From assembly GCA_012646185.1 (NCBI GenBank), contig GCA_012646185.1_4706.1: 64,000 nucleotides of DNA. One strand, written 5' to 3'. The notes under the pieces are model-generated. The model was not told where the DNA came from, did no database searches, and worked only from the letters and a program-made list of their open reading frames with translations. Made by a program: the position numbers and the translations under genes. Origin of the DNA: a phage. Below, in pieces: positions 11,987 to 38,100 of this stretch (the stretch's first letter is position 1; every line of letters begins with the position of its first letter).

Positions 11987-12056
11987 AGATGTTGTCCTCT
12001 TAATTGGATTTAGATTGTTGGGTGTGTTATTGGGAAATGAAAACGTTGTTTCGGTT

Positions 12057-12888: not shown

Positions 12889-12920
12889 CCCTCTCCCAAC
12901 CCATCAGGGAAGGGAGAGGG
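12889..12920. terminator. GC-rich two-tier hairpin 4 nt after stop of 12925..14292
   Basis: CCCTCTCCC-AA-CCC-ATCA-GGG-AA-GGGAGAGGG. Confidence 0.6.
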
Positions 12921-12924
12921 AATA

Positions 12925-14292: not shown

Positions 14293-14294
14293 GT

Positions 14295-14900
14295 TTAACG
14301 ACCCCGTTGCTGTTGTTGAATGATGAATTCTTCGATCTTCGTACCACGGAATTCGCTGTGACGAACCGCTTGCAGTTGCTCTTCAACGGTTGGGCCTGCG
14401 TTGAGACCGCCACGACGTGCGCGGTTGATGCCGATTTTACGACGCTGACCGATTTCACGTAAACGTGAAGATAATCCGCTCATTTCGGTTGGGTCTTTAA
14501 TACGACCGCGTGCAACGTTCCACAGACCACCCATGAACTCTTCGAGGATACGGCTGGCTTCGAGAGACGGTACGCGTGCGTTGGGATCGTTTTCGAGATT
14601 GTATTTAACGTATTCCGTGTGTTCCAGAAGAAGCATGAACATCTTCATGGCGTTCACGTCAGGATTTGCAATACGCATAGGGACACCACGAGAATGTTTT
14701 TCAGCAGCCTGCGGTACAGTGAGCTGTGCGGGCACCTCTTCGTTCATGGCCATATCGTCGATTTCTGCAACCCCTGAAGAGTAGACACCGCTGACTTCGT
14801 TGGTGTAGTTATCCACCATGAATTTACGGGGAATCCAGAATTCGAATTTACGTTCAAATAGACGTTTGGTTGGGGTATCTTTAACGTGTTGTAGACTCAT
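14295..14900 (-). CDS. hypothetical protein (201 aa)
   Basis: ORF; ATGA start/stop overlap with upstream gene. Confidence 0.7.
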   Translation of the reverse strand: MSLQHVKDTPTKRLFERKFEFWIPRKFMVDNYTNEVSGVYSSGVAEIDDMAMNEEVPAQLTVPQAAEKHSRGVPMRIANPDVNAMKMFMLLLEHTEYVKYNLENDPNARVPSLEASRILEEFMGGLWNVARGRIKDPTEMSGLSSRLREIGQRRKIGINRARRGGLNAGPTVEEQLQAVRHSEFRGTKIEEFIIQQQQRGR

Positions 14901-16213
14901 GGTTCAATAGCTCCTGCTCGTAACAGCATAATAACGAACGGTGTGAAATAATAACGATCTAGCGGAGAAAGCAACGGTATTGCGTCAACCATCTGTTTCA
15001 GTGCCGGATGGCTGATCGCTTTCTCATCGACCATATCACGTACCATACTCTCAATAATCGTCATTGGGGCTTGATTGCGGTAGAAAGCCTCTGTGAAAAC
15101 ATAGTACGGATCGTCCGCTACCGATGGAAACAACGGAACGCCGTCATACTCCATCGATGTAAGGTTGGTCACCAACGGATTTGTCGGTGGTGTGTTTTCA
15201 GGTACAGCCAACTCTTTACCTACGTCTTCACCGAGCGACGTGGTCGCAGGCCACATACAGAACCGCGCACCACTAAAACGAATCCCACCTGCAGCCGGGT
15301 ACTGATAGAAACGCTTTGTTGACAACAGTGTGAATTTCACCGTCAACCGTGCTTCGTCTTCCCGACGTCCGTCCATGACCCATTCAAAGACAGAAATCGC
15401 GTTCGCTTCCTGGCTGTCGTCTACGTTAAGGCGTCCGAAGTTCCATGAAGGTTTTCCTTCAAGCGACGACCATAATTTCGTAAACGCGTTAACGCACCAG
15501 GGATCGTAGGTTGCAGCATCTTGACCAGGAACAAGCAATGTGTTTAATTCACGGCTGTAGAATTCATGGTAGTACGCGTGACAAAGTCCCAGTGCACGAC
15601 GGAGATAATCGTACTTACGATTGTATTTCTCCGTTGCCATTACGGGATGTTTTCCGTGCTTTAACTGGTCTTGGTCGTACAGCGTATCCTCAACGATTTT
15701 CGCTTCCAGTTCGATAAGCTGTTTTTCGTCAAGAATACGTTGGAAGGAAATATCACATTCGTAAGCCGGTGCTAAGCTGATGTTCTTCGGCGTGATTCGG
15801 GTGATCGTGTACACCGCGATACGATGATCGAGACCGGAGATTAACAGCATGTTACCTAAAAGAGGAACCGATACCGCCGGAAGTATACACGTACCCTCGG
15901 ATTGAAAACGTGCGGTCCCGTTGTCGTACGACGGCGTCAATGACGACATTAACTTGATAGGGTAATGTCTGATGCGACGGTACTGCTGCTCGGCAATATC
16001 ACGGTTAGCTTGAAAACTGCTTTGTTCATCATCACGACCGAGAATCTGTTCGTAATAATCACATTCTACGGAATAACCGGATGCGTAATTCACTAACCCG
16101 ATTTGACTATTGTATTGCTCATCCACCACTGCAGAACGATAAACATCGTCGCGAGCCTTCGCGGGTTGTTGGGGGTTGATGATGGGTTTCGCGGGCTTCT
16201 TAGCGAGCGCCAT
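14897..16213 (-). CDS. hypothetical protein (438 aa)
   Basis: ORF overlapping the stop of 16200..17765 by 14 nt. Confidence 0.75.
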   Translation of the reverse strand: MALAKKPAKPIINPQQPAKARDDVYRSAVVDEQYNSQIGLVNYASGYSVECDYYEQILGRDDEQSSFQANRDIAEQQYRRIRHYPIKLMSSLTPSYDNGTARFQSEGTCILPAVSVPLLGNMLLISGLDHRIAVYTITRITPKNISLAPAYECDISFQRILDEKQLIELEAKIVEDTLYDQDQLKHGKHPVMATEKYNRKYDYLRRALGLCHAYYHEFYSRELNTLLVPGQDAATYDPWCVNAFTKLWSSLEGKPSWNFGRLNVDDSQEANAISVFEWVMDGRREDEARLTVKFTLLSTKRFYQYPAAGGIRFSGARFCMWPATTSLGEDVGKELAVPENTPPTNPLVTNLTSMEYDGVPLFPSVADDPYYVFTEAFYRNQAPMTIIESMVRDMVDEKAISHPALKQMVDAIPLLSPLDRYYFTPFVIMLLRAGAIEP

Positions 16214-17765
16214 AGCGTTTCACTCCTACGATGGTACCGACAAGAATTCTCGGTACGAATAAACTACGATGTTTGAACCATGAAGCGGTTGTTGGGATAC
16301 GTTTGATGGCTTCGATAAGCCCGATTAGCGTATAGCATCCCCGACTGTTCTTCCTAGGCCAGTACTTTTTATCTAGACCTAATACTGCAAACAGTTCATC
16401 CACCAGATTGGGATAACAACACAACGCTTCAAGTGTTTCAACCTGTAACTGACTTAAATCTAACAGTATCGCTAGACGAACGTGGTAATCACTCCGTAAG
16501 TCTAACGGATCTTTCGCTTCAAGATCACCAACGTCGGTTAATGTCCACGCGTCTCTTGCGTAGCGGTATTTGCCCTTCCAAACCTCAAGGAAAAAAGGAG
16601 ATTGGTAGTGGCATTTTGACCATTCTGGGTACTCACGGAACCACCGAACAAGATCGGGATGGAATTCACCTTCTTCGGCTAACGAGTCCAACGTCACCAA
16701 TAGGTTAGGTTGTTCAGGATCGATGGCAAGCAGCGCGGTGAAAAGCGTGCTTGATGGAAGTTCGGTTTCCACGCTCGATGGCGGTAGCCATTCATCCAAA
16801 TCAGGATACCGATACGCTTGAATCGATGCGCCCTGTTCAGGCAAGAACGAATCACGAAGAATGTCCTGATACTGCACCACCATACCACCACGACGCGCAC
16901 GGGATTTATCACGCACCGAAAGGCTCGGTTTGTAAAGGTACTCTTCGGGGAGTATCTGTTGGTGTACTTGAACCGGATACCGTGCTACGATGTGTGTTGG
17001 CGTGTCGTACGTGTAACGGTAAGAGAAGGTTGCGTTGTACGAAGAACTGTTCTCATTCTTCTCGGGTTTCGGAGCGTCGGTGAAATCAAATTGACCAGAG
17101 ATCTCTTCTTGCATTTCCCTGATAACCAATTTAACGCTCTTACCGTCACCGGCAACTGTCGTCATGGTGGTTGCACGGTTGTCGAACCCATCCCTAAGGT
17201 ATTCGCTGAACTTATCCCCGTAACCCGCTATTGCTTCTCGGTGTGTATGAATAACTTTTAACAACATGAGAAACTGTGTTGGGATCGCATAGCTGTATTC
17301 GGCGCTAAGAAAGGCGGCAACATGCTGACTTGTGAGCAACCGTTTCATGTCGTACCACCAACGTTCGGCAGTGACCTGATCTTCGAACCGTTTGGTGATC
17401 TGCATGGTTGCAACCATCGTACTGTAAACAGGTACCAGCGATACACCAAGGTTACGGTCTTCAAATACGGGAAGACTGTTTCGTTTGTAAACAGTATCGT
17501 ACATAGAGGCCTGTTCTTCAGGGACAATGTTAAGCTCAATTTGGATAAACCCGTCAGCAGGCCCCTTTACATCCTGATCAACAACTTGCGGCGGTTGCTC
17601 GTTCGCAGCACTCATTTTAGCGTGAAGCGCTTCCCCTCGAAAAAGAATGTTCTCCCGACTATAATCCCACCCGCAAAGCTCGCTGATCTGCCGTAACACC
17701 GCGATTGCAACCGGACGTGTTACCGTCGCGTATACGTCATTGATTTTTCGATCAAGTTTAGGCAT
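16200..17765 (-). CDS. hypothetical protein (about 521 aa)
   Basis: Start moved to ATG 17763-17765 (MPKLDRK), which overlaps the upstream stop by 8 nt; ORF-track start 17792 lies inside the upstream gene. Confidence 0.7.
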   Translation of the reverse strand: MPKLDRKINDVYATVTRPVAIAVLRQISELCGWDYSRENILFRGEALHAKMSAANEQPPQVVDQDVKGPADGFIQIELNIVPEEQASMYDTVYKRNSLPVFEDRNLGVSLVPVYSTMVATMQITKRFEDQVTAERWWYDMKRLLTSQHVAAFLSAEYSYAIPTQFLMLLKVIHTHREAIAGYGDKFSEYLRDGFDNRATTMTTVAGDGKSVKLVIREMQEEISGQFDFTDAPKPEKNENSSSYNATFSYRYTYDTPTHIVARYPVQVHQQILPEEYLYKPSLSVRDKSRARRGGMVVQYQDILRDSFLPEQGASIQAYRYPDLDEWLPPSSVETELPSSTLFTALLAIDPEQPNLLVTLDSLAEEGEFHPDLVRWFREYPEWSKCHYQSPFFLEVWKGKYRYARDAWTLTDVGDLEAKDPLDLRSDYHVRLAILLDLSQLQVETLEALCCYPNLVDELFAVLGLDKKYWPRKNSRGCYTLIGLIEAIKRIPTTASWFKHRSLFVPRILVGTIVGVKRYGAR

Positions 17766-18141
17766 CGATGTCGTCCTCGCTAATTTCCTCACCTCCTTGT
17801 TGTCGATATCCGGTATAATGAATCAGACTGCTCTGTAGAAGCTCTTTAACGAGCCCTAGACGCGTTTTATCTGTTTCATTGGACGTTTCCATTAATGTTT
17901 CTATTTCGTTGTTTAAAACAGCGTATAGCGCTTCTAACGGCAATCCTTGGATGATTGGTTTGATGGTACCTTCCGGTAGTGCCGCAACAGGAATCTGCAC
18001 GACGGTTTCATGTGAGGTATGTGGGTTAATACGGCAAATATACATACCGGGTACTGAATGTCGCGGGCACGCCGCTACCAAGCATGTCTGTTGCTGCGCA
18101 CCGTTAAGTGCGAGTGAGAGAAATTTTGCTTCACGTGTCAT
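17758..18141 (-). CDS. hypothetical protein (127 aa)
   Basis: ORF directly after hairpin 18194..18213. Confidence 0.6.
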   Translation of the reverse strand: MTREAKFLSLALNGAQQQTCLVAACPRHSVPGMYICRINPHTSHETVVQIPVAALPEGTIKPIIQGLPLEALYAVLNNEIETLMETSNETDKTRLGLVKELLQSSLIHYTGYRQQGGEEISEDDIDA

Positions 18142-18193
18142 CGCAGATTCCTGTTTGAAAGATAAGATATCACATGATGGTCGACAGCATAAA

Positions 18194-18213
18194 GCCCACC
18201 CCGAAGGGCGGGC
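18194..18213. terminator. hairpin after 18230..21616
   Basis: GCCCACCC...GGGCGGGC stem with one mismatch; followed on the minus strand by TTTATGCTGT as at other hairpins. Confidence 0.5.
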
Positions 18214-18229
18214 TGTTTATGCGTACGGA

Positions 18230-21200
18230 TTACTTGTAGGCACCGCAATGGGCTTTGATGAGGAAAAGCACCGCTTGCATCGGTTTATTGAACTGTTGCC
18301 ATAACGTCAATGCCGGATGGAACAACCAATCTTCCAGACCAAGAACGATACCGTAGTTAACGACATTATTAACATCGTTCTCAACGTTGAGTTCGCTATC
18401 CAGGAATTTATCGATTGAACGCAGGGTCTGCATGGCGTTGTCAGCAATAAGCCAAGCTTCATGTGCTTCACGAGCCGCACGCAGCACTGCCTCCAGTTCG
18501 CTGATAGTAGCTACCGGTAATTCCTCACTGGTGAGGTCGTCAGAAACCGTAAACTGGCGATTGATACCGGTGTAGATCCACTGCATCAGTTTCGCTGCTT
18601 CCTCGTTCGGGTTGTTACGCGTTGTCGCATAAGTCGCGCTCACCTTCACGATATGCGTTTCACCAAGATACGCTTTGGAACCAACACCTTTACGATCGCT
18701 GTCTTTCCACGGTTGTACGGTAGCGACCATGAGCTTATCCCATTTCTGAATAGGAATACGCTTCAGACCAACAACCGATCCAGCGGATGTTTCGGACTGG
18801 TTGCTCTTCCGCACGTCGCTGAGCTCACGATCGATAGCAACGATTAATTCACGCGTCATGTTACCAAGCATTTTGATTTCACCCAACGCAGCGATGAGCT
18901 TCTTCACGTCAGTAACAGGTTCACCACCGATGGTAAGATGACGGATGAAACGTTTCAGAATAATCCGTTCTGCTGCTGGGTTACCACGACGCGCTTTAGC
19001 CAACGCTTGCTGTGTTTCGGCGAACAGCTTATCCCATGGAGCCGTAGCGGCGGTATAGTAACGATGGTTGGTTTCGATCCAGTTACCGATACGGTTGACC
19101 GCGCTCTTAACGGTATCCATGAATCCTTCCATCGCAATTTCGGTAGCTTCGACGTTACCCTGGAAGTTATCAGGACCGATTTCGCGTGCCGCTACCAGAA
19201 TACCTTCCACCGCACTCACCGCATGACGACCGATAGCCAGATTTCGCTGTGCTTCTTCAGCACGCTCAACGAATTCCACTACCGCAGGATCGTCAACGAT
19301 TTCCGCCTCGGCAACAGCACGCGTACCCGCATCACCTTCCAGCGTTTCGATAGTGACAACCGGATCGTTTTCACCGGCAACATCCTGATACTCTTCCTGT
19401 TTGAGATCGCCGTTATCAGCCGCTGCGACAGCGGTGAGTATACGGACGGTAACATCACCGAGTTCTTTTGCAGCGAATCCGTAAACGGTGCATGCTGTTT
19501 TTGCAAAGTTCATTAGAATGCGTGTACGTTTAACGATGTAACCAACGCCGTAGTCACTACCGCTATTATCGATGTCACGGATTAACTGCTCAGCCGTTTC
19601 TTGAAGGATAGATACTGACTTCAAGAGATCGTCTTCAAACAGTTTCTTCGACACCTCAACCAACATATCAGCATTGATGTTGGGTGGGGTTTTGTCGCCC
19701 TGTTGTTTCATCTCGCTTAATTCATCGCGGAACTTACTGATTCCATCCAAAGCGGCACTGGCGGTATGTCCGAACGCGGCAACTCCTGGCATTGTTGTTG
19801 CTGACAACATATCCGAATCGGCGTTTGGACTTTCGCCTTCTTTAAGATCCTTCAGCTGGTCGAAGAACTTGCGAGATGCTTCAGCGATACGTTTGCTGTC
19901 TTTCACCGCGTTTACGATTTTATCGACGGATTTAGCGTCGTTTGCAAGCAGCGTATCGAGTTTGTTCCATTCGACACCGACTTTCGTCGCATCCTTAGTA
20001 TCGCTTGGCGGAGGAAGCAGTTTTGTCACCGGAGTCGTGCGTTGTTCTTTGGTCAGCTTGTTGGCCTTCTCTTCGATTTTTTTCTTGTTAACACCAAAGA
20101 GATTTTTCAAACGCGCCACGAGGGCTTTTAAGAACTTCGCGACCGCTTCGTAAACCGATTTCAGAATCTGTTTAAAGCGACCCGGCTGCTTTTCCCCGTC
20201 TTCCAGATTGAGATCGCTGTTCAGTGCGACATCAAGCTGTTTGTACGATTCCATGATGTATTCGTCTTTGATTTCAGGACGAATCTCGAAGCTTTCCATC
20301 GGACCTTCAGCCGGACGGAATTCCATTTTCAGTTCGCCTTGCAGGGTAGGGTCGACAATAGCGATAGCTTCACCCTGACCATCAGCGTTAAAGCGTTCAG
20401 CGTAACGAGTACGGCGAACAATAACGCTCTTATCCCCATCAAGACGACGCACCACCATGGTGCCAGGAATGTACGGTTGTTCTGTTTCAATGACGGTTAC
20501 ATCTGTTTCACCCTCACCGAGAATAACAGATGCACGCTGTTCGACAACAGGAACATCTAATACACCACGGGCTTCCAGCTCTTGATGGATTTCGAACGAC
20601 TCTTGTTTCAGATCTTCATCTTCTTCGTTTTCGTCGTCTTCATCATCGTCACCTTTGGTGTTTTCATCATCCTTGGTGGTTGTGTCGTCGGTGGCACCAG
20701 CGTCAGCGTCGGTGTTAGCAGGTTCTTCGGACGCAGGTTCGGTGGTGTTGTCCTCCGTGGACGACCCGTCAGTGTTATCGACATCAACATCACCTTGCAG
20801 TTCTGTTTCCTGAGCAACTGCTTCGGCTTTCTGCTCGCCGGTATTACCATCATTAGCGTCGACAACAGGTTGTTCGTCAGCGACGGTATCTTCAACCTTT
20901 TCTACTTTCTCCACGACACGTTTAATCACGGTGACTTTGATGGGTTCTTCCGTTGTTTTGGTTTCTGACGTCACCTCGGCTGCCGCAGCCGCTGTTTCAG
21001 CAACAGGTTCTGCTTTTTCCGGTTCGACGACATTACCTTTAACACCTTCGGTGGTTTCTGCAGGTTGCGCTGCCTGTTCGATTTGCGCCGGATTGGTTGG
21101 ATCGATGGCGTTAGCCGCATCCTGAATCTTGTTCTTCAGGTTGTCGCGGTCAGCGTTAACGGTCGGGTCGTTGGTCACTTTCGGTGCCGGTGTTTCGGTC

Positions 21201-21616
21201 GGTGCGTTTGCCGGATACGGGTTCTTCGGCTCTTCGCCAGGTGCGGTCGGTACCGCGATCAGAACGAACGGTTGAACATCGTTACCGTCTTCCATGGTTA
21301 CGCCACCGTTGCTCGGTGTGAAACGAATTCGTAAACTACCATCAATAGGACGGGTCACAATAACAGCACGTACGACATCCTCACCGTTCTCATCCGTGCT
21401 ACGAATCACACGAACAGCGTCATCAACGGTAGCCCCTTCCTCGAGCGTATCTGATTCGATCGTCGCTTCGATGCTGTCTGGCCGTGCCGCTGTAGGTAAT
21501 GCGATCACTTGCTCTTCTTTATCAGTAGAAAGCGTTGCTTTGACTTCGATAGGTGTATCGCCGCTTTCCAGGTTAAGATGCGACTTACGCATCAGATCAG
21601 CTAACGATTTTTTCAT
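18230..21616 (-). CDS. large acidic virion-type protein (1128 aa)
   Basis: N-terminal about 330 aa are D/E/T-rich low complexity; contains ESFE-type motifs (LKQESFEIHQ, GPMESFEIRPEIKDEYIMESYKQL) shared with the downstream paralog array. Confidence 0.8.
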   Translation of the reverse strand: MKKSLADLMRKSHLNLESGDTPIEVKATLSTDKEEQVIALPTAARPDSIEATIESDTLEEGATVDDAVRVIRSTDENGEDVVRAVIVTRPIDGSLRIRFTPSNGGVTMEDGNDVQPFVLIAVPTAPGEEPKNPYPANAPTETPAPKVTNDPTVNADRDNLKNKIQDAANAIDPTNPAQIEQAAQPAETTEGVKGNVVEPEKAEPVAETAAAAAEVTSETKTTEEPIKVTVIKRVVEKVEKVEDTVADEQPVVDANDGNTGEQKAEAVAQETELQGDVDVDNTDGSSTEDNTTEPASEEPANTDADAGATDDTTTKDDENTKGDDDEDDENEEDEDLKQESFEIHQELEARGVLDVPVVEQRASVILGEGETDVTVIETEQPYIPGTMVVRRLDGDKSVIVRRTRYAERFNADGQGEAIAIVDPTLQGELKMEFRPAEGPMESFEIRPEIKDEYIMESYKQLDVALNSDLNLEDGEKQPGRFKQILKSVYEAVAKFLKALVARLKNLFGVNKKKIEEKANKLTKEQRTTPVTKLLPPPSDTKDATKVGVEWNKLDTLLANDAKSVDKIVNAVKDSKRIAEASRKFFDQLKDLKEGESPNADSDMLSATTMPGVAAFGHTASAALDGISKFRDELSEMKQQGDKTPPNINADMLVEVSKKLFEDDLLKSVSILQETAEQLIRDIDNSGSDYGVGYIVKRTRILMNFAKTACTVYGFAAKELGDVTVRILTAVAAADNGDLKQEEYQDVAGENDPVVTIETLEGDAGTRAVAEAEIVDDPAVVEFVERAEEAQRNLAIGRHAVSAVEGILVAAREIGPDNFQGNVEATEIAMEGFMDTVKSAVNRIGNWIETNHRYYTAATAPWDKLFAETQQALAKARRGNPAAERIILKRFIRHLTIGGEPVTDVKKLIAALGEIKMLGNMTRELIVAIDRELSDVRKSNQSETSAGSVVGLKRIPIQKWDKLMVATVQPWKDSDRKGVGSKAYLGETHIVKVSATYATTRNNPNEEAAKLMQWIYTGINRQFTVSDDLTSEELPVATISELEAVLRAAREAHEAWLIADNAMQTLRSIDKFLDSELNVENDVNNVVNYGIVLGLEDWLFHPALTLWQQFNKPMQAVLFLIKAHCGAYK

Positions 21617-21631: not shown

Positions 21632-22738
21632 TTAAAAGTAATATTTCAGCGCCTCGCGAGAGACATCAAGCATAGCCGCTGTTGAATTCGTAAAGAACTC
21701 GGCATAGCCCACAAGCGGCACCTTGATCCACGCGGTATACGCTGTAAGGTATCGAGAAAGGGCTACCATAGCATCATCAGAAGCAGTAGTAACTGACAAC
21801 TGACCTTGTTGACGATAAACGTCGTTAAGTTTTGCTTGTAGATTCCCTGCGATTTCGAGTAACTCGTTGGCGTACTTTTTGCGATGGTAACTAACCAGTA
21901 AATCAACACCCGTATTTACCGACTCGAGTAGCACACCAACTTGTTCTAATGTTGGCATTGTAACCACCATATCCCGTTCAACGGACGGTACATCCTGGAC
22001 TTCAAACCGTGCGGATTGAATGGCGAGGGACTGTTGAATTGAACCAGAACCTGAGGCGGTAACCTGATCGAGTCGTAGCGTACGGTTACCCAGTAACGTT
22101 ACGTTGACGAGTCTCGATTCGTTCAGCGTACTGTAGACTTTGTGCAATAACGTATACGCGTCACGGTTAATCACATCGATTAATGCGGTATCCGTCTGTT
22201 TTAAGATAATGTCGAGCGCTCTATCTAACGTATTAGCGAACTGCTTGAAATCATCACGGAACGACGAAGACAAGAGATATTCAGCGATTGCCAAATTCTG
22301 TTTGTATAACGTATTCCCAGTTGTGAAGTCGAATCCAAAACTGTTCCCATACCGTAGGTGCGGTGCCAGCGTTGACGAAGCTTCGAAGCTTTGCGCGATG
22401 GGTTTACGACCAACGGCTTTTGTGTAGTGACGGCGGATGTTGCTGAGTTCGAGCTGTAGTGCACGACTACGATCGATAAACCGGGCGATAAAAGCAGTGA
22501 TGTTCCGCAACGTTGTCCAGATCGCATCGATGATGGCTTTGATGATTTTCATCGCAAGCTGATTGTACGATTCCATCGTGAGGAGATCAGCACTTTCTGT
22601 GGTATAACCGGTTGCCGGAATACCGCCTGCTTGCTGATAAATAAGCTGGTGAATTTGTCGTTGCGTTGCTGTCTCTGGCACAGGTAATGTTTTTAACAAG
22701 CTTAACGCTTGAATCTGTCCGTCATAGGTCTGCAGCAT
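21632..22738 (-). CDS. paralog-family protein (about 368 aa), putative internal virion protein
   Basis: Start placed at ATG 22736-22738 (GAGGAA 7 nt upstream); contains MESYNQLAMKIIKAIIDAIW, which resembles the family motif. Confidence 0.7.
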   Translation of the reverse strand: MLQTYDGQIQALSLLKTLPVPETATQRQIHQLIYQQAGGIPATGYTTESADLLTMESYNQLAMKIIKAIIDAIWTTLRNITAFIARFIDRSRALQLELSNIRRHYTKAVGRKPIAQSFEASSTLAPHLRYGNSFGFDFTTGNTLYKQNLAIAEYLLSSSFRDDFKQFANTLDRALDIILKQTDTALIDVINRDAYTLLHKVYSTLNESRLVNVTLLGNRTLRLDQVTASGSGSIQQSLAIQSARFEVQDVPSVERDMVVTMPTLEQVGVLLESVNTGVDLLVSYHRKKYANELLEIAGNLQAKLNDVYRQQGQLSVTTASDDAMVALSRYLTAYTAWIKVPLVGYAEFFTNSTAAMLDVSREALKYYF

Positions 22739-24023
22739 TGCTGGTTTCCTCAAGTTCGAGATGCGCGTCAAGATAATCATTAAGACCGTCGATGACGTCG
22801 CAGACAGTTAACAGGAATCGGGCAAAAGCAACCGCTTGGAAACCGACGACGTTACGCGCGATACCCACACGTTGAACGATAGCGGATGCGGTGGTATCGT
22901 CGTTGTCCATCTGTTGTAGCAAACGCTCGTAAGGTTGAATCCATTCGTCCTGGTCGGCAAGGCTTGCTTCAAGACAACGTTTAAATTCCAACTGGCGTAG
23001 CGTAGACCATAACGTACTTAATGCGTTGATGATCGCGTTGGTTCCGTCGATAACGTCGTTTAACGGTAAGAAACGGAATCCGTCTTTTGCTGATTGGAAA
23101 GATACGGCTTCCCACACAACGCTGAATTGCGTTCCTGTTGCGTCTTCGATGTTGTGTACTTTAAGATAGGAAGCACCAACAGGTACGTCAACGACCAGAT
23201 CGTCTGTTCCGGTAGGCGTTAACGGCTTCTCGCATAACGCCTCGTTAATGACCTCGAGGATATTCTCCCAACAGGCTTCGTTTTCTGCAGCGATACCTTC
23301 TTTGTTATCCGCAGATGGTGCTTTTAGTAGCTGCATTAATAACGGATCGAGTTGACGATGCCATGCTGCGAGGATTCCTGTGTTCGTCACGATGTTTTCT
23401 GCGGTTTGTCGTAAATCAGCAATACTGCTTACGGCACCACCTTTCGGATGAAGATATCGCCAGTTGTAGGGAAAGTTCTCCCAGAATGCGTTATCTTCAT
23501 TAACATCGTATTCGGAAATAGTTTTCAACGCAGCCGCTTTCTTTAATAACGGCTTCACCTGACGAACGAATCGACGATAACAACGATTGCAGATATCGAT
23601 CGCGTAGCGGTATAACTCGTTCATGTAAAGCCATAACGCTCGGGTTGCTTCTTTTGCGGTCTTGTCAAAACTTTCCATGTTCAAGCTCATCCCGCTGGAA
23701 GTTTCCTCTTCCAGACCATCGATGATGTGGTTTGGGTCCATTCCCATTCCGGCTGCTGCGGTTGTTGCGATATGTTTGATGGTGCTGATATCGCGTTCCT
23801 CGACTGCAGCCATGTTTGGGACAATATCCAGCCTGAGTTTATTTAATGTTTGAAGGTGTTGTTCACCTTCTTTCATCATCGTGTTTGTTTCGTCGATTGA
23901 GTGAAACTGATTCTCAATATTACTGGCATCGAGAATGTTGCCAGCGATACCGAACGATTCTACAGGTTCATCATCAATCCCTTGAAACAACGATGTCATG
24001 GGTTGTTGTAACACGTTTTCCAT
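22722..24023 (-). CDS. paralog-family protein (433 aa), putative internal virion protein
   Basis: AGGAG 6 nt upstream; N-terminus SLFQGIDDEP and motif MESFDKTAKEATRALWLYM match the paralogs. Confidence 0.75.
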   Translation of the reverse strand: MENVLQQPMTSLFQGIDDEPVESFGIAGNILDASNIENQFHSIDETNTMMKEGEQHLQTLNKLRLDIVPNMAAVEERDISTIKHIATTAAAGMGMDPNHIIDGLEEETSSGMSLNMESFDKTAKEATRALWLYMNELYRYAIDICNRCYRRFVRQVKPLLKKAAALKTISEYDVNEDNAFWENFPYNWRYLHPKGGAVSSIADLRQTAENIVTNTGILAAWHRQLDPLLMQLLKAPSADNKEGIAAENEACWENILEVINEALCEKPLTPTGTDDLVVDVPVGASYLKVHNIEDATGTQFSVVWEAVSFQSAKDGFRFLPLNDVIDGTNAIINALSTLWSTLRQLEFKRCLEASLADQDEWIQPYERLLQQMDNDDTTASAIVQRVGIARNVVGFQAVAFARFLLTVCDVIDGLNDYLDAHLELEETSNAADL

Positions 24024-24130
24024 TTGGGACTCCTACGTAGGAAAATCTTGGCGGGTGATCATGTCCGCCATTTACCTTCTGAACCGTTGATTCAGAAGTC
24101 AAAAGATAACCGGATACCAACGTCATAAAA

Positions 24131-24162
24131 CCTTCCTCCAACCCAACAGGGAAGGAGGAAGG
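24131..24162. terminator. GC-rich two-tier hairpin
   Basis: CCTTCCTCC-AA-CCC-AACA-GGG-AA-GGAGGAAGG between 22722..24023 and 24173..25462. Confidence 0.6.
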
Positions 24163-24172
24163 GATATAGTGG

Positions 24173-25462
24173 TTATGCTTTTTCGGTTACAGCGTCGAAG
24201 TATTTCGCTGCAGCAAATACAGCATCTGCATATTGACGGTTAGCAACACGGAGGATCTTAGCTGCTAATACCGCGCTCAAGCGCGCCATTTCAGAAATGG
24301 CGCTTATATAAGGACGAACGGTTTCACGATCTGCTTCCGGTAGATTGTCGAGCATACCGTCCCATTTAGTTTTAATTTTCATGCCGTTGAGTTTAGCAGT
24401 ACGTTCGACAGTACTTGTTAAACTTTCTGTCTGGTGAAAATACACGGGGTCAACAACACGAAACGCGTTAAGATACGAAGTCAGTGCGGCTTTCAATTCG
24501 TCGTCGTTATTGAAAATGTTCGCGTTTTCAATACTACCGGTCGCGGTTTCTTCAACTTCGATCTGAATATTCTTCACGAGCGCGCAGGCCTTAATGGTAT
24601 CTTTCTCAGCCATAAGAGCGTCAAGACCTTTAACAACATATCGTTTCCCACCACTTTCTGGTATTTTGAGTCCTTTTAACGCAGGCTTGATGGCGTAAAT
24701 ATAATCGTCCAGAATATCGGCAAGTGTCGTCAAATCGGTTAGTTTATTAACTTTCTTGTTAATGTCGTCAGTTTGGAGTAGTAAAAAAGTGGATGCTTGT
24801 GTGGATGCCGCTAACTGCTCAATATGTTTACGAATCTCCAACGCGTTAACCGTTTTTGCGTTAGGGAACATGCTAATCATATTCCCGGTCGGTTTATTTA
24901 GTTGTTTGATGTGACGCTCGCCTTTATTTACAGCGGTTGCAACATCGGTAATTTTTTTATACGCTACCGCAAGGTTTTTGAAAAGCAGCTGAATCAGCTT
25001 ACATAACTGTTCAGCCATGTTCGCAATGATTACCCAGACTGCGTATAACGCTTGTGCTGCGCGTTCTTTAAAGCCTTCCAGTACAATAGCTTGCCCTTCC
25101 ACCAAACGATCGTCGGCTTGGAACATGTCTTCATCAGACATCCCCAGGTTAGCCGCTGACGTCGAAGCAATCTGACGGATAAGGGCGACGTCACTAGCAC
25201 GTGCTTCCGTGATCGTTGGTGCGATCATGTACGCGGTATCTTCCAGCGTTGCTGAGGTACGCACCGCGATTTCAGCCAGTTCGCTGGATTCATCGATTGT
25301 CTCGTCGGTACGTCGAATCACCAACTCAACTTCGTCCTCTTCGATTTCCGCGTTAGGATCATTTTGCTCCGTCGGAATTGCCGCAAGAAGATCTTCGGCG
25401 CTGAGCAATGCGAGTTCGAATGCGTTTTTATTGACGTTATCAAAAAGAGAGATGCGGGCCAT
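24173..25462 (-). CDS. paralog-family protein (429 aa), putative internal virion protein
   Basis: AAGGA upstream; N-terminus ISLFDNVNKN and block APTITEARASDVALIR...RLVEGQAIVLEGFK align with 25472..26788. Confidence 0.8.
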   Translation of the reverse strand: MARISLFDNVNKNAFELALLSAEDLLAAIPTEQNDPNAEIEEDEVELVIRRTDETIDESSELAEIAVRTSATLEDTAYMIAPTITEARASDVALIRQIASTSAANLGMSDEDMFQADDRLVEGQAIVLEGFKERAAQALYAVWVIIANMAEQLCKLIQLLFKNLAVAYKKITDVATAVNKGERHIKQLNKPTGNMISMFPNAKTVNALEIRKHIEQLAASTQASTFLLLQTDDINKKVNKLTDLTTLADILDDYIYAIKPALKGLKIPESGGKRYVVKGLDALMAEKDTIKACALVKNIQIEVEETATGSIENANIFNNDDELKAALTSYLNAFRVVDPVYFHQTESLTSTVERTAKLNGMKIKTKWDGMLDNLPEADRETVRPYISAISEMARLSAVLAAKILRVANRQYADAVFAAAKYFDAVTEKA

Positions 25463-25471
25463 GTTAGTTCC

Positions 25472-26788
25472 TTAACCTTTTGTATAAGCTTTAACGAGAG
25501 TGTTGATAAATGAGGTCAATGCACGAAGATATTGGTAAGCGAATTGGTTTTCAATACGGTTCTCTTTACCGCAAAGCAGAATCGCACGCTTAACGAGCTT
25601 AGGATAGATCTCAACGTACGGTTGGTAGCTCGCATCAAAATTCTGCTCGTTGAAGCGTTTCATGGTGATTTCCTGGATGCGCTCCATGGTGCGAATTTTA
25701 TTACGAGAGAAGATCTCAGAGAAAGCGCGTCCGCGTTTTGTTACCATCAACAGATCTTTCGCGAACGTCAGTTGTCGAACGCTACGCAAATCGTCAGGTG
25801 TCGGCAGGACGTACGTTTCCGGATCACTATCCCATTCAACATCTTCAACGACAATATCCAAGTCGAGGTAACGTTTAACCGCATCGATGATATTGTCTTT
25901 TGACGCATCGAATTCTTTCAAGAAGACTGCGCCGTTGATGTAACGAATGCGTTTTCCGGAAACCGTTGGGGTGATAACGTCAGTACCTTCCACGGAACCG
26001 CGATTTTCCAGCGTCGATTTGACAGCGTTCAAGAAAGTCAGATAATCAACGGGAAGTTTTTCAACCTTATCTAAATGGAAGTCGATGATGTTTAACCCCA
26101 ACCCATCAATAACTGAATAACCGTCCGATTTAAGGAACATCTGATTGAAGGTATCGATGTTGCTTTTCAGCGCGTCTACACCACCAACGTTGTTACGGTT
26201 AGGGAAAAGTGTCCGCCACTCCGCTTTAAATGCAACTTCTTTATTTTCCTCGTATTTGCCTTTAGGCATTTGTTCGAGGGCTGCAACGGCTTTCTGAAAA
26301 TTGCGCGTCTCGTCGTAAACAAGACGGGTAAGCTTCTCGAAGGCTGCTGCCAGGGTCAGGGCAATATCAACAATGATATCCCAGATCTTTTTCATGGCTT
26401 TTACAACGGTGTCCTTAAACCCTTCAACAACCAAAGCTTCTCCAACCTCAACACGATCGGTTGGCGTCAGCAATGCTTCGGAGGGTAGACCCAGAGCAAT
26501 CGATGCGGATTCTTGCACGTTACGAACCAACGCAACATCACTGTAGTTAGCCGATTCGATAGTCGGAGCAACATCAAAACTGATTTCCCGTAATGCAGCA
26601 ACAGCAGGGAAAGCACGATCAAGTGCATCTTCATGTTCGTCGATTGTCGCCAAACGTAATTCAACGCCATCGGCATCGATGACATCGGCTGTAGGCTCCA
26701 CAGCAAGCGCCTCAGCAACAATAGGATCTTTTTCAAACGCCTCAAGGCTGATATCGCCTTGGGTCGCAAATAGCGGTATGTGTACCAT
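25472..26788 (-). CDS. paralog-family protein (about 438 aa), putative internal virion protein
   Basis: Start placed at ATG 26786-26788 (GGAG 8 nt upstream; MVHIPLFATQGD aligns with paralog N-termini); block APTIESANYSDVALVR...EALVVEGFK. Confidence 0.8.
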   Translation of the reverse strand: MVHIPLFATQGDISLEAFEKDPIVAEALAVEPTADVIDADGVELRLATIDEHEDALDRAFPAVAALREISFDVAPTIESANYSDVALVRNVQESASIALGLPSEALLTPTDRVEVGEALVVEGFKDTVVKAMKKIWDIIVDIALTLAAAFEKLTRLVYDETRNFQKAVAALEQMPKGKYEENKEVAFKAEWRTLFPNRNNVGGVDALKSNIDTFNQMFLKSDGYSVIDGLGLNIIDFHLDKVEKLPVDYLTFLNAVKSTLENRGSVEGTDVITPTVSGKRIRYINGAVFLKEFDASKDNIIDAVKRYLDLDIVVEDVEWDSDPETYVLPTPDDLRSVRQLTFAKDLLMVTKRGRAFSEIFSRNKIRTMERIQEITMKRFNEQNFDASYQPYVEIYPKLVKRAILLCGKENRIENQFAYQYLRALTSFINTLVKAYTKG

Positions 26789-26836
26789 GTGTTGTCTCCA
26801 GTAATGATTCAAAAGATAAACCTGAGCGGCATAGAA

Positions 26837-26868
26837 CCCTCTCCCAACCCGTTAGGGAAGGGAGAGGG
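26837..26868. terminator. GC-rich two-tier hairpin
   Basis: CCCTCTCCC-AA-CCC-GTTA-GGG-AA-GGGAGAGGG between 25472..26788 and 26891..28213. Confidence 0.6.
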
Positions 26869-26890
26869 GATATGTCAGTTTATTAACTGA

Positions 26891-28213
26891 TTACTGCTGT
26901 GCTGCGTCAGCCGGTTTCTCAGCCGCCTGGCCGCCGTACTCTTTCAGCATTTTAGCAACGCCATCCAGGACAGCGTTACCTGCCTGAACACCGTATTTCA
27001 TCAGACCGGTCTGCGGGTTCACATAGCAGGAACGTGCGTCTTTCAGCGCAGACAGTACAGCTTGAACACGCTGTTTTTCCTGAGCGGAAACTTCGCCTTT
27101 CTTAGACAGATCGGCTTCCATATCGTCACCGAATTTAACAGCGTCTTTGAAGCCCTGGGATTTCTTACCGATGTTGCCTTTCAGCGCCAGCAGTTTGTCA
27201 GCCAGTGCTTCAACACCGCTAACCGCAGCAGCCAGCTGGTTCAGGGACAGGACGGTAGCTTCAACTTCTTTTGCTTCGCCGGAGCGTTCCCAGGTTACTT
27301 TACCATCATTGGCTTTGAAACCCCAACCTGCCGGGCCAGCAACGTCAGCAATCGCCGGAGCGTTCAGTTTATCAGCGTACTCGGTGTGAGACTTAGCAAT
27401 AACGGTACCAACGAATTTATCAGCACGATCGTCAGCAGCCTTCATTGCTTTCTCGAAGGTGTCGGCGATTTTGGTCGCGCTGGTAACCAGATCGTCGCCA
27501 CCGGTGTAGCCTGAAACACCGCTACCCAGTTTAACTTTGGTATTTTTAGCAGTGCCTTTACGCTTGGCGATCATTTCTTTCAGTTTAGCAGCACGCGCTT
27601 TCAGTTTGGTCGCGCCGTCGAAGATGCGATCCATGAACTTCACGAAGGTTTCCCAGGAAGTCTTCAGGAAGTTCTTGATGGTTGCCCACAGTTTCTGCCA
27701 CCATTTTTGTTCTTCCAGGAAGATCATGTTGGTTGCATCGTAGCGGGAAGCGGAACCACCGAAGCTTTCGAAGGACGGCATGGTTTCCGGCATTTTGAAA
27801 CCGATAGTACCACACAGACGTTTCAGATTACGCATGTGTTCCTGAGCGGTCTGTGCAGACATACCACCGTCTTTCAGGTAGCTTTCGGTTGCAACAACGG
27901 TTTCCGTCAGTTCATCCATGGCATCATCCATGGCTTCTGCGGTTTCGTCGTCTTTTGCAATTTCGATAACAACAGAATCAACCTGCTCGATATCACCACG
28001 AACTTCGATAGCCAGTTCGGTTTCAGCTGCGGTATCTTCAGCGATTTCAGCACGTTCGGTCAGTTCAGCCACAACGTTTTCATCCGCTGCTGCAGCATCA
28101 GCTGCCGGTTCTGCTTCAACGGTTGCCGCTGCATCCGGATCGATCTCAGCAGCCAGTTGAACCAGCTGTGCGTTAGATGGATTTGCGACAAGACGATCAA
28201 AAATAGAAGGCAT
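26891..28213 (-). CDS. highly expressed paralog-family protein (440 aa), putative abundant internal virion or scaffold-like protein
   Basis: Strong codon bias (antisense frames open: ORFs 27062..27514, 27707..28234); N-terminus MPSIFDRLV and SFESFGG...KLWATI match the family; Ala/Glu/Lys-rich. Confidence 0.8.
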   Translation of the reverse strand: MPSIFDRLVANPSNAQLVQLAAEIDPDAAATVEAEPAADAAAADENVVAELTERAEIAEDTAAETELAIEVRGDIEQVDSVVIEIAKDDETAEAMDDAMDELTETVVATESYLKDGGMSAQTAQEHMRNLKRLCGTIGFKMPETMPSFESFGGSASRYDATNMIFLEEQKWWQKLWATIKNFLKTSWETFVKFMDRIFDGATKLKARAAKLKEMIAKRKGTAKNTKVKLGSGVSGYTGGDDLVTSATKIADTFEKAMKAADDRADKFVGTVIAKSHTEYADKLNAPAIADVAGPAGWGFKANDGKVTWERSGEAKEVEATVLSLNQLAAAVSGVEALADKLLALKGNIGKKSQGFKDAVKFGDDMEADLSKKGEVSAQEKQRVQAVLSALKDARSCYVNPQTGLMKYGVQAGNAVLDGVAKMLKEYGGQAAEKPADAAQQ

Positions 28214-28220: not shown

Positions 28221-28289
28221 TTCCTTTACAATAAATTGCACATTAGCTAATGTGGCTTAAGTGAACCGTCAGCTCACTTAAAAGCCCTT
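28221..28289. promoter_or_regulatory. palindromes upstream of 26891..28213 (operator or promoter-context candidate)
   Basis: Perfect 16-bp palindrome CACATTAGCTAATGTG followed by inverted repeat TTAAGTGA...TCACTTAA in the leader of the highly expressed gene. Confidence 0.3.
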
Positions 28290-28808
28290 AAAACCCGGTG
28301 CCATAGGTTGCCCAAACACCGCATTCAAAGTACATATGATGTCCTGGATGCCATTGTCCCAATGGAGCCAAGTACGCACCATCTCTTCGTCTGACAACGT
28401 GATATAACTCATAAGTTTACCGCTGCTTTCCAGACGTTGGTGTGAACTTAACGACTGACGATCTGACCAGTTATCAATCAATTGTCCAGCAATCTGTACG
28501 TTCGTGTCTCGTCTACCCGTATGAATAAACCGTAGCGTATCACGGATAAACTCCAGACTGGTGAAGTTCAGATTTGGGTTATGGCTGTTCATTTCCACCC
28601 AATCGGTGATGGGGTACATCAAACGATAAAGGGTAGAAAGAACCTGACGTTCATATTTCCAGTCATCGAGAGGAGTACCATCGACCAGACGCTGATACAA
28701 ACTAACAACGTCGCGATCGTAGTTCTCCTGGCGTTTTACACCGTTAACCGGAAATCCGAAGAACCCGGTACCGTATAACGTTAAAGGGACGTCACGAAGT
28801 GCATTCAT
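28278..28808 (-). CDS. hypothetical protein (176 aa)
   Basis: ORF with ATGA overlap to 28805..29707. Confidence 0.65.
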   Translation of the reverse strand: MNALRDVPLTLYGTGFFGFPVNGVKRQENYDRDVVSLYQRLVDGTPLDDWKYERQVLSTLYRLMYPITDWVEMNSHNPNLNFTSLEFIRDTLRFIHTGRRDTNVQIAGQLIDNWSDRQSLSSHQRLESSGKLMSYITLSDEEMVRTWLHWDNGIQDIICTLNAVFGQPMAPGFKGF

Positions 28809-35152: not shown

Positions 35153-38100
35153 TTATCTTACGTTATTGCTGTTCTGCTGTTCGCTGAACCAACCGTACAC
35201 CTTGAGATCGGTACCGTATTTCAATGCGATATACGCATTCAGTGCGGCACAGAACAAAGACGCGAATGCCCATATCAGCGAAGGATCAACATCTTCCGTT
35301 ACCACCGGGAGAGTATTATCCGGTTCCCATGATGGAGAACTGTCCATGAACGTCGTGACCATTACTCGCCGTTGTTCTTCGGTGGTAAAGTCGCTATGAG
35401 GTTCCAACGCTTCTTTTGCCAGACGTCGATATTCGAACATATGCGTTGCTAAAGCCGATGAGTTACCAGATTCGCCTTCATAGTTCGGATCCACCGCATA
35501 ACAGAGTTCTGTTGAATCTAACAAAGCAACCGCCTGTGTGATGCTGTCGGCAGTGCCTGCACCATAGAGTTCGATAGACCGCGAAAGCTTCTCACAGAAC
35601 GCATCCAACGCGGCAGGATTGGACACCTGAAGGTCAAGGCCTAATGTCCACGGATAGTTACTGAATACACCCGTAAACCGCGGCATAACACCCAACAGAT
35701 GTTGTCCGATTACAGCACGGTTATAAACAGCCCGGTTATAGACTTGAAACGCAGCCTCCAAAGCTTGGTTATAATGACGACGAAGTTCGTCACGAGAGTT
35801 GCGGAACCTGTTTGCCGCAAGACTCGTGGCTGCGACGCTACAAACATCGTAATTGGTGGACGAGAGCACAGTTTCGTTAAGATCGAACGCTTCCTGTTTC
35901 AACGATCCGCTAACCGCTGCTGCTTCGCTGTTTGCTTTATCGACAACAGTACTCAAAGCGTTGATGTAACGTTTAGCTCGGACTTCCAGCCATTGTGCGA
36001 TGCCGAGAACATCCACAGCGGCTTTAGCAAGGTCACGCGCGTTCACGATTTCGTTCTTCAAGGCACCCAACCCTTTATTCTCAGGCGAAGAGGCTTGTTG
36101 ACGAATCATGCTGTTTAACATGGTAAGCAGATTATCCAACTCGTGCCCACTGACCTTGTTACGCGCATCGGTAATCGGCCCTTGCAGGAATTTACGGCAA
36201 CCATCGTTGTATCGAATCAGTTTATCCACATCGATAGATTCGTTCGTGGATTCCTTGAACTGATCCTTCAATTCTTCACGGTAGTCATGGATTTCACTTG
36301 CGAGATTATCGATAGTGATACCATCATGTCCAAGAAGAACTTTATTGAAGTTACCTTTCTCGAATGCCAGAGCAAGACCTTCACGAATCTTAGCGAGTTT
36401 ATCCTGATCAAGTTCACGACCGTTCGATAGCTCTTTCACTTCCGAGCTGATTAATGCCGAAACGTTACCCAGATTGTCGGTAACCCCTTTGAACGCTCCC
36501 GACCAGATCGTTCCTGCTTCAGCGTATTTCGCAATGGTCTGAATACCGACGGTGTGCAGCGACGCTAAACGTTTCTTCGTGCCTTCGGTAAGCAGAGCGT
36601 CTTTAGCTCGCGTAAGCTGGCTGTTATTAGCTTCCGCCTGCTGAATCGCTGCTTTCGCACTTCCATTACGCCAGCTCTTAACCAGCCAATCAACCAAACG
36701 TTTTAGGATGTTGACGGTATATTCCATCGTCCGCCGTAACGTTTCCCACGCGCTTTCTGCGGTATAGATGCCGTACCCTTCCATCTTCAACGCTTTCAAG
36801 CTTGTTTGACGTGCCAGCCATTCTACCGTTGCGGAACAAACGTTTACAAAGGCTTCCAGGTAGGTGTAATAGACGTCTGTTGCCGACGTTTCGTTGAACT
36901 TTGAATGCAGATAGAACTGATCGTAAAGTTCGTCGTCATCGCCGAAGGCATCATAGTTCCACAGTTCTGTATCACAACCTGTACCGCAGAAGACGTCAGC
37001 TGTCGTAAACTCTTTAAGCGCTTTAGCTGCATCATTCGTCAGGAATTTACCCGTTTCGACTACATCGTCGACATTAAGCTTGGGGAGTTCGTCGGTGACT
37101 GGCTCTTCCAACATCAGCATATTGAAGAATGTGCTGTACTTGTATCCGAGCCATTTTGGATAACTGCTTTCAGGGATCGTAGACAACGGCTTGATTTTCT
37201 TGGCTTCAGCCAATGTGTCTTTTGCGACCTGATATTGGTTTTCCCCAGCCTTGACGCGACGTAATGCTTTTTCTTCCAACTGCTTAAGCTTGGCATGGCG
37301 TGCTTGTGCTGGAGCTTCAACAAGTTTTTGTACTGACCGCATTGCAGAAATCGCTTCTTTTAATACGATCATCGGCATACGAACTTTGCCGTCGTCGAAA
37401 CTAAGAGCGCGAGCGACACGTTTACTTACGACAGGCTTATCATGGATATTTCGTTCCACCCATGATTTGTTTGCGTAAGTTTGAGCGATCTGCTGTTGGA
37501 TATTTTCAAGGTATTTCCAGCCGTTGGAAGCTTTGTTATCCAGAAGCGGATTCGGTCCCTTCTTATCGAAAAGTTTCAGAATCGGACCAAAGAAACCTTC
37601 CTGTACGAGTTCGATACGCGTGTATCCGTCAGCCGCTTCGATTTCTTCTTGGGTTTTGTCCCAGAGCTGTTCACTACGGACAGCAGTAGCTGTTTCAGAT
37701 ACCGACATAACAAGCTCGGCAACAACTTCAGCACAGGTCAGTACGGTACGCACGCATTGCACTAGCATACGCTGGTAAACGATACGTGCGTTTTGTAGAC
37801 GTGCGATAACCGCTAAATAACCGATATTGTCAAGACGTTCGTCGGCTTGAGCAGAGTCGACACGTTCTATCAGTTGTTTAACCAGCGCGGCTGTTTCCGG
37901 ATAATCGTTCACGACGTCACGCATAATTCGTGATGCGAAAACCGCGGTACCTAAAACGTTAAGAAGTGTTTTACCGTCCCATTCTTTTGGTGTCGCTACC
38001 GATTCGGTAGGGATGAGATTTCCCGCTTGATCGAAGTATGGCATAAGGACATTGATATCCGTAGACGGTACTGCGGTGATTGCGTTGTACTCTTCATCCG

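Follow-up and report, generated by a model that had tools for sequence, protein, structure and literature searches.

What do five consecutive genes of similar size, all read from the minus strand of a phage genome, encode, and do they belong to one family? The question is raised by positions 21632-28213 of a 64,000-nucleotide stretch of phage DNA (contig GCA_012646185.1_4706.1 of NCBI GenBank assembly GCA_012646185.1), which was analysed at its full length and is called the window in the following. A first-pass annotation, made from the sequence alone, had described the five genes as a tandem array of paralogues and had read their products as most likely internal virion proteins. The results presented here indicate that the array, from a nucleus-forming jumbo phage of the Goslar type, very probably encodes PF12699 internal head proteins, both with respect to the family assignment and with respect to the role in the virion. 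It is composed of one major species (gp58), the low-copy paralogues gp54-57 and, probably, the large neighbour gp53.

The region was found to be 96.3% identical at the DNA level to Escherichia phage vB_EcoM_Goslar (MK327938), and nothing else in the phage collection matched it. The five genes are one-to-one orthologues of Goslar gp54-gp58, with gene order and strand conserved, and they are referred to by these names (Table 1). Protein identity to Goslar is 97-98% for gp54-58 (97.5% for gp58) and 95-98% when gp53 is counted. The GenBank record of Goslar labels all of gp54-gp58 as 'hypothetical protein'. A check of the open reading frames (ORFs) bore out the gene set proposed at first, five minus-strand genes of 368-440 amino acids (aa) with correct coordinates; what had been overlooked is the neighbouring gene of 1128 aa at 18230-21616, gp53, which bears the same junction motif, at E830.

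The assignment starts from the Pfam family PF12699 (phiKZ_IP, 'phiKZ-like phage internal head proteins'), which has a curated gathering score of 27 bits. With 68.3 bits, gp58 lies above this cut-off, and it also matches PHROG 'internal head protein' families. Two metagenomic loci served as distant relatives, L004 (gp58 85% identical) and L002 (gp58 45% identical). By itself, gp54 scores 22.2 bits, below the threshold, over positions 89-384 of the hidden Markov model (HMM), with an E-value of the order of 1e-4; its L002 orthologue (387 aa; BLASTP to gp54 5e-32) reaches 63.8 bits and is above the threshold. The scores of gp57 (23.7 bits, E 3.3e-5), of its L004 orthologue (439 aa; 26.8 bits) and of the L002 orthologue of gp55 (453 aa; 23.7 bits) are all below it, and for the L002 orthologue of gp56 the match, although full-length, is weak at 12.4 bits. 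No PF12699 match was obtained in the Pfam scan for the gp55, gp56 and gp53 proteins themselves; gp55 and gp56 join the family because hhalign links both of them to gp57 (96-99%). The coordinates on the Pfam model are mutually consistent, the mature domain starting at HMM position ~89 in gp54, the gp56 orthologue, phiKZ gp92 and phiKZ gp96.

The shared fold was examined in this analysis on gp56. Its AlphaFold2 (AF2) model has a mean predicted local distance difference test score (pLDDT) of 68.6, rising to ~80-90 in the C-terminal (mature) domain, and it matched 44 viral structures in BFVD at E <= 1e-3, with a best E of 7e-8 and ~400 aligned columns. Every named match is a virion or internal head protein of a jumbo phage (PhiEaH1, 201phi2-1, Noxifer and others). 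For Goslar, it was reported in a 2026 preprint that gp53 and gp58 carry a predicted PF12699 domain (10.64898/2026.04.21.720040) and that AlphaFold gives the same fold for gp54-57 (10.64898/2026.04.21.720040).

Pairwise comparison reaches less far. In all-against-all BLASTP, similarity was detected for gp56-gp57 (E 4.6e-18), gp55-gp57 (7.7e-10) and gp55-gp56 (4.8e-7), concentrated in the first ~200 residues, and neither gp54 nor gp58 had significant similarity to any other array protein. With orthologues added, hhalign found gp56 and gp57 to be homologous over their full length (99%, E 3.5e-18), and gp55 joined both at 96-98% through its N-terminal 150-200 residues. The hhalign profiles were built from close relatives and are shallow, since word-indexed homologue searches gave only Goslar-like sequences; such a search of 5.8 billion proteins returned 2 relatives for gp54, 34 for gp56 and 53 for gp58. 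The relatives of gp58 are the more conserved (85-98% identity, compared with 66-97% for gp56), apparently in the same phages. Between gp58, gp54 and the gp55-57 group, the hhalign comparisons were not significant, which counts against a single family. Together with the BLASTP result, it would fit an array in which paralogy is confined to gp55-57, with gp54 and gp58 as unrelated helical proteins that have come to the junction motif by chance or through convergence on a protease site; the same motif is indeed present in the orthologues of gp64 and gp65, both of which have no PF12699 match. This explanation is nevertheless quite unlikely, in that gp58, the gp54 orthologue, gp57 and the gp55 orthologue match the same Pfam model at consistent coordinates, the alignment of the gp56 model with PF12699-type proteins spans ~400 columns, and one shared predicted fold was reported in the preprint (10.64898/2026.04.21.720040). 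Since profile and fold evidence agree, it was concluded that the five genes are one family at the profile and fold level, even though most pairs are beyond pairwise detection, and that the paralogy of the array is real but mostly deep. The five-gene paralogy claimed at first was thus recovered pairwise for gp55-57; it failed pairwise for gp54 and gp58, and for these it holds at the family level, through profiles, orthologues and fold.

The depth of the paralogy is not uniform along the array. The more distant locus, L002 (metagenome contig ERZ926030, 179 kb; locus 10001-19668), in which gp58 is 45% identical, holds only four small genes and one gene of 1380 aa, a single 463-aa gene taking the place of gp56 and gp57. 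Hence, gp56 and gp57 look like a local, lineage-specific duplication, and the number of paralogues varies within the lineage. The first-pass annotation had also described an N-terminal module common to all five proteins, composed of I.LF near the N-terminus, APTI.EA..SDVAL.R and a junction followed by an amphipathic, Trp-containing helix. Only gp56 and gp57 turned out to have the first two elements in full. In gp55 these elements are degenerate, in gp58 they are reduced to a faint echo, and gp54, whose junction is preceded by just 56 residues, lacks them. The junction and the amphipathic Trp helix, on the other hand, are common to all five, in gp58 as FLE/EQ or SFE/SF (a slash marks the predicted cut).

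The surroundings of the array lead to the same assignment. The array occupies the position of phiKZ gp92-97 and of gp53-54 of Salmonella phage SPN3US, directly after the PhiKZ_gp91 homologue, and the wider head-gene block matches phiKZ gp87-gp97 and SPN3US gp48-gp54. This gene order is kept in L002, L004, SPN3US and phiKZ; in the Goslar record, gp61, gp62 and gp63 are noted as similar to phiKZ ORF089, 088 and 087. Even the series of sizes after gp91 is comparable, with 440/435/505/547/371/816 aa in phiKZ and 440/438/429/433/368/1128 aa in the window. In both, the fifth gene is short, phiKZ gp96 (371 aa) matching PF12699 positions 89-386 only, like gp54, and the sixth gene (phiKZ gp97, 816 aa; gp53 here) is large and has no Pfam match.

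The reading as internal virion proteins, supported by the PF12699 matches and by synteny, is further supported by published mass spectrometry (MS) of Goslar virions. All of gp53-58 were detected in purified virions (10.64898/2026.04.21.720040), and liquid chromatography with tandem MS gave ~330 copies of gp53, ~70 of gp54, ~50 of gp55, ~60 of gp56, ~50 of gp57 and ~2150 of gp58 (10.64898/2026.04.21.720040). A sharp rise in codon optimisation towards 26891..28213, the gp58 gene, had been noted in the first-pass annotation and taken to suggest very different copy numbers; the rise is real, and the disparity agrees with the Goslar copy numbers. The codon adaptation index (CAI; E. coli weights of Sharp and Li) is 0.24 for gp54, 0.30 for gp55, 0.34 for gp56 and 0.36 for gp57, compared with 0.72 for gp58; that of gp53 is 0.42. 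Among the 52 ORFs, gp58 ranks first, matched only by the major capsid gene (0.745), and 29 of its 30 Leu codons are CTG. The rank of the copy numbers follows the CAI at the top, where gp58 is far above gp53 and gp53 is above gp54-57.

It was also found that a Goslar gp58-sfGFP fusion made in trans is packaged into virions, enters the cell by injection together with the DNA and remains at the early-infection (EPI) vesicle (PMC10541120). In phiKZ, members of the family are processed by the head protease gp175 and are injected, injection having been shown for gp92, 93, 95 and 97, and several of the phiKZ paralogues tolerate transposon insertions. These findings bear on the proposal that the array proteins act as a scaffold or core for the building of the prohead only, being degraded and expelled afterwards instead of travelling as cargo. 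The removal of acidic leaders by a protease would be shared with the core proteins of T4 (PMC5694885), and a dedicated scaffold protein is not confirmed in these phages (PMC5694885); however, all six proteins are present in purified mature virions, gp58 in ~2150 copies, gp58-sfGFP is injected into the next host, and tolerance of transposon insertions by several phiKZ paralogues is not expected of an essential scaffold. The virion MS and the injection data thus leave a pure scaffold largely refuted and highly improbable.

If the array encodes packaged internal head proteins, the next question is how they mature, and here the junction is of central interest. It consists of a Glu, then [GS][FY], then a strongly amphipathic Trp helix (hydrophobic moment ~0.6), and it was found throughout gp53-58, the gp58 candidates included. 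All 6 of the array proteins (with gp53) have the motif, compared with 7 of the remaining 46 ORFs in the window (Fisher p = 8e-5); its occurrence in all six was reproduced in 0 of 2000 shuffles, and orthologues of no more than 23-45% identity still have it. On the PF12699 HMM, the junction Glu is at position ~92 (overall ~89-92), where the mature domain starts. In gp58, arithmetic on the Pfam HMM coordinates points to FLE167 and not to SFE149 as the homologous site; gp58 residues 174-228 were aligned by hhalign with SPN3US 126-186, and the gp58 tryptic peptide spanning the junction is YDATNMIFLEEQK.

A maturation cut at this type of junction has been mapped by MS in SPN3US, where propeptides of 125 and 124 residues are removed from gp53 and gp54 by the prohead protease at A-x-E (PMC5694885). 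Read in the protein sequences, these cuts are AQE125/GWKETLKDLF and AQE124/SYGARK, that is, the same junction of E/[GS][aromatic] and then a helix. The suggestion, made in the first-pass annotation, that the junction could be a maturation cleavage site gains support by homology with AQE125/GW and AQE124/SY; for Goslar-type phages it is still a prediction, by which the mature proteins would begin at gp53 G831, gp54 S57, gp55 S118, gp56 G130, gp57 G123 and gp58 E168 or S150. The parts on either side of the junction differ in charge. The leaders, of 56-167 residues in gp54-58 and 830 in gp53, have a net charge of -16 to -27 in gp55-58 (gp58 -27), of -80 in gp53 and of -3 in the 56 residues of gp54, and the net charge after the junction is +2 to +10 (gp58 +10), except for -17 in gp55. 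Further [SA]-x-E sites are situated near the N-terminus, after a short hydrophobic motif, namely AFE16 and SAE23 in gp56, SLE16 and AFE19 in gp57 and AAE23 in gp58. These resemble the first cuts of phiKZ gp93 (SLE13) and gp162 (FFASLE17). The known phiKZ cuts are SLE13 in gp93 and SLE17 (17/18) and SNE137 (137/138) in gp162 (PMC5694885, PMC11297242).

Peptide evidence for the removal of the leaders was taken from the part of the Goslar peptide table that holds peptides sorting alphabetically from A to ELK, a range that excludes semi-tryptic peptides starting with G, S or EQ. The gp58 leader peptides 55-72 and 115-131 contribute 0.045% and 0.16% of the gp58 signal, compared with a mean of 1.15% per peptide, and this depletion is about that of a peptide from the propeptide of the capsid protein (0.037%). 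Within the same range, three gp57 leader peptides and one gp56 leader peptide were not found. The partial table is consistent with leader removal, rather than proof of it. That a protease is active in Goslar is judged from the truncation of the capsid protein: its first 157 residues are absent from the model obtained by cryo-electron microscopy (cryoEM), and its GCE150/S and SEE153/L fit a [SAG]-x-E cut.

The large neighbour gp53 has the same layout on a different scale. A long, acidic and variable N-terminal region is followed by a conserved C-terminal domain of ~300 aa behind AME830/GF, a junction motif that is kept in relatives at 30% identity. When gp53 was compared with SPN3US gp53 by hhalign, E830 was aligned on the mapped cut E125 (E 0.0023). 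Neither the C-terminal domain nor three relatives had a Pfam match; an exhaustive HMMER search of 1.84 billion representatives gave only three relatives, and the AF2 model of the C-terminal domain, with a pLDDT of 45, was unusable for a fold search. Residues 1-830 are acidic (net -80) and of low complexity, and the length varies among relatives (totals of 1089, 1127, 1380 and 1665 aa). The region holds further ..ME/[SDG] sites (VTME/DG, GPME/SF and YIME/SY), and ME[SGD] has a frequency of 1.85 per 1000 residues in the array proteins and of 0.43 elsewhere. At least part of the long N-terminal region stays in the virion, since the Goslar gp53 peptide 202-220 is abundant there.

Several observations weigh against the reading as processed internal head proteins. 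P3 at the junctions is V, V, N and T, plus A in gp53 and F or S in gp58; S/A/G fit only gp53 and SFE149 of gp58, and with V, V, N or T at four of them, most junctions deviate from the S/A/G rule of phiKZ and SPN3US. Nor is the position of the cut constant in the family, because the phiKZ gp162 cuts lie upstream of its PF12699 match. In the Goslar peptide data, the junction-spanning peptide 809-834 of gp53 and the leader peptide 52-62 of gp55 were both detected, weakly. The Goslar cryoEM maps have no inner-body density and no leader fragments; an ordered inner body was seen neither in micrographs nor in asymmetric or symmetry-expanded maps (10.64898/2026.04.21.720040). Because no ordered cylindrical body was observed in Goslar, the genes are filed here under the protein family and not under 'inner body'. 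The gene of the prohead protease is not in the 64-kb window. The probable membership of gp53 is supported by the preprint and the weak hhalign match and not by the Pfam scan or the model, which gave no confirmation. Lastly, cleavage exactly at the conserved junction in Goslar-type phages is deduced from sequence and homology, and the chances for it are taken to be even.

The leaders of gp56, gp57 and gp58 are, in addition, better conserved than would be expected of a part that is removed. Compared with L004, identity before and after the junction is 95% vs 79% in gp58, 90% vs 66% in gp57 and 87% vs 56% in gp56, and the same trend was observed against L002. This suggests that the leader has a constrained role in assembly. 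It could also be read in another way, namely that the array proteins are mainly cement of the capsid wall, with N-terminal regions that stay on the inner shell and stabilise the giant capsid and with C-terminal domains of secondary importance. The N-terminal segments of phiKZ gp93 (14-84) and gp162 (19-134) are fibre-like minor capsid proteins (PMC11297242), residues 14-84 of gp93 remaining bound to the inside of the capsid wall when its helical domain is set free (PMC11297242). The higher conservation of the N-part of gp56, gp57 and gp58 (87-95%, compared with 56-79% for the C-part) would agree with such a role, and the detection of gp58 leader peptides at a few percent of the mean peptide signal would fit the retention of a small subset. 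The same leader peptides are, however, strongly depleted, the Goslar maps are without such fibres, gp53 and gp58 are absent from the atomic model, and ~2150 copies of gp58 are far above the ~180 wall sites used by phiKZ gp93. As the main function of the array, wall cement thus appears doubtful, though worth keeping in mind; it is an addition to the explanation as internal head proteins that are packaged and injected, and not a substitute for that explanation.

A scheme can be proposed for these internal head proteins. Each array protein would be made late in infection with an acidic N-terminal leader, which would bring it into the prohead and, if phiKZ gp93 is taken as an analogue, may bind to the inside of the capsid shell. 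A prohead protease of the phiKZ gp175 type, which cuts after Glu, would first remove a short N-terminal peptide and then cut between the leader and the helical C-terminal domain, the E/[GS][FY] junction being the most likely site. The neutral-to-basic helical domains would remain in the head with the DNA and be expelled with it at infection, ending at the EPI vesicle. The copy number would be set mainly by expression, gp58 having codons like those of the capsid gene and its own downstream hairpin, and the others ordinary codon usage. Targeting by the leader, the exact cleavage sites and any role of the array proteins after injection are inferred. A wider reading, put forward tentatively and with less confidence than the cut at the junction itself, would take E/[GS][FY] with the amphipathic Trp helix as a general prohead protease substrate signature of the Goslar lineage, present in at least eight head proteins (gp53-58 and the gp64 and gp65 orthologues) and more permissive at P3 than S/A/G. 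The acidic leaders may, in addition, be interchangeable capsid-loading tags, in which case the fast-evolving C-terminal domains could be diversifying injected effectors.

Table 1 Features of the array and its surroundings, with positions in the window
Feature	Position	Strand	Remarks
gp53 orthologue	18230-21616	minus	1128 aa; next gene downstream of gp54; probable sixth array member
gp54 orthologue	21632-22738	minus	368 aa; longer ATG start at 22780; short-leader PF12699 member like phiKZ gp96
gp55 orthologue	22722-24023	minus	433 aa; minor paralogue, degenerate N-terminal module
gp56 orthologue	24173-25462	minus	429 aa; minor paralogue, full N-terminal module
gp57 orthologue	25472-26788	minus	438 aa; TTG alternative start at 26812; minor PF12699 paralogue, full N-terminal module
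gp58 orthologue	26891-28213	minus	440 aa; major PF12699 internal head / injected protein
gp59 orthologue	28278-28808	minus	PhiKZ_gp91 vertex-binding protein; PF25618 159 bits; upstream neighbour of gp58
Junction E codon, gp53	19127-19129	minus	AME830/GF
Junction E codon, gp54	22571-22573	minus	equivalent of gp56 E129
Junction E codon, gp55	23673-23675	minus	equivalent of gp56 E129
Junction VLE129/GFK, gp56	25067-25084	minus	predicted maturation cleavage site
Junction E codon, gp57	26423-26425	minus	equivalent of gp56 E129
Junction E codon candidates, gp58	27713-27715 or 27767-27769	minus	FLE167/EQKWW or SFE149/SF, respectively
Hairpin cassette	6398-6434	minus	directly after capsid gene
Hairpin cassette	12882-12920	minus	downstream of gp48 orthologue; nearly identical to 26830-26868
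Hairpin cassette	18188-18214	minus	after gp53; RNA fold z-score -3.7
Hairpin cassette	24124-24162	minus	after gp56; RNA fold z-score -3.2
Hairpin cassette	26830-26868	minus	GC-rich hairpin + TTCTATG just downstream of gp58; RNA fold z-score -4.1

The five hairpin cassettes were found by a pattern scan of the minus strand of the window, and in each of them a GC-rich hairpin (9-12 bp stem, pyrimidine-rich 5' arm) is directly followed by T(T/C)TATG. The Goslar record marks only two of the three cassettes within the array. Late promoters of the phiKZ type centre on TATG, and for this reason the cassettes may be terminator-plus-restart elements; they may split the array into gp58, gp57-56 and gp55-54-53. 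A scan of the region for sigma-70 promoters and terminators was uninformative, since shuffled sequence gave more sites.

At the major capsid gene (6535-8757, minus strand), gene calling can go wrong. The opposite strand has a slightly longer ORF of 766 aa (6460-8760, plus strand), which a naive longest-ORF caller chooses instead; this ORF is almost certainly a shadow of the capsid gene, due to the strong codon bias there. The window differs from Goslar as an isolate or assembly, and neighbouring genes differ. The gp64 orthologue (35153-38758, minus strand) has 1201 aa, compared with 930 aa in Goslar; its C-terminal 544 residues are 98% identical to the Goslar protein and its first 392 only 48%, with extra sequence inserted between, and DNA colinearity with Goslar is lost at ~36.8-38.4 kb of the window, in this gene.

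With respect to what is already known, the window holds no system of a new kind. For phiKZ, 201phi2-1 and SPN3US, the family is already established together with its tandem paralogy, processing and injection, and the statements on Goslar gp53-58 are already contained in the 2026 preprint (10.64898/2026.04.21.720040), the array being an ordinary one for its phage family. The PF12699 proteins are among the most abundant head components of chimalliviruses and are delivered with the genome, and their role was called an unsolved mystery (10.64898/2026.04.21.720040). The family, the skew in copy number and the likely processing site were recovered from raw sequence in the first-pass annotation. Leaders or cleavage sites of Goslar gp53-58 are not discussed in the preprint; the cleavage-site prediction for each Goslar-type paralogue is possibly new, as is the finding that in gp56, gp57 and gp58 conservation is higher in the leader than in the injected domain. 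It is likewise of modest added value that the junction motif may extend to two more head proteins, the orthologues of gp64 and gp65.

Among known systems, the internal proteins IPI/II/III and Alt of T4 are alike in mechanism, with an N-terminal targeting peptide, a prohead protease cut after Glu and injection with the DNA (PMC5694885). Their leaders are of 10-20 residues and are cut at L/I-x-E, compared with 56-167 residues here and 830 in gp53, and no match to T4 internal-protein families was obtained in Pfam and PHROG scans of the array proteins; no link to them in sequence or fold was seen. The likeness is best regarded as a mechanistic analogy only, and not as a family relationship. The gp92-gp97 genes of phiKZ (with gp162 and gp163) are closer, being six consecutive genes after gp91 with PF12699 matches for gp92-96. 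They differ from the Goslar array in that several members are present at ~100-200 copies each, with no single dominant one, and in that an inner body was seen in low-resolution electron microscopy of phiKZ, whereas none was seen in Goslar. In addition, the known phiKZ cuts are S-x-E sites which, in gp162 at least, are not at the junction position. SPN3US gp53 and gp54 (paralogue family A) share with the array the position after the gp50-52 homologues, strong PF12699 matches, acidic leaders and basic mature domains. They are, however, two equally abundant members (>600 copies each), and not one dominant and several minor ones; the first 15 residues are the same in both of them, which is not the case in the array proteins, and P3 is Ala at both mapped cuts, compared with V, V, N, T, A and F/S here.

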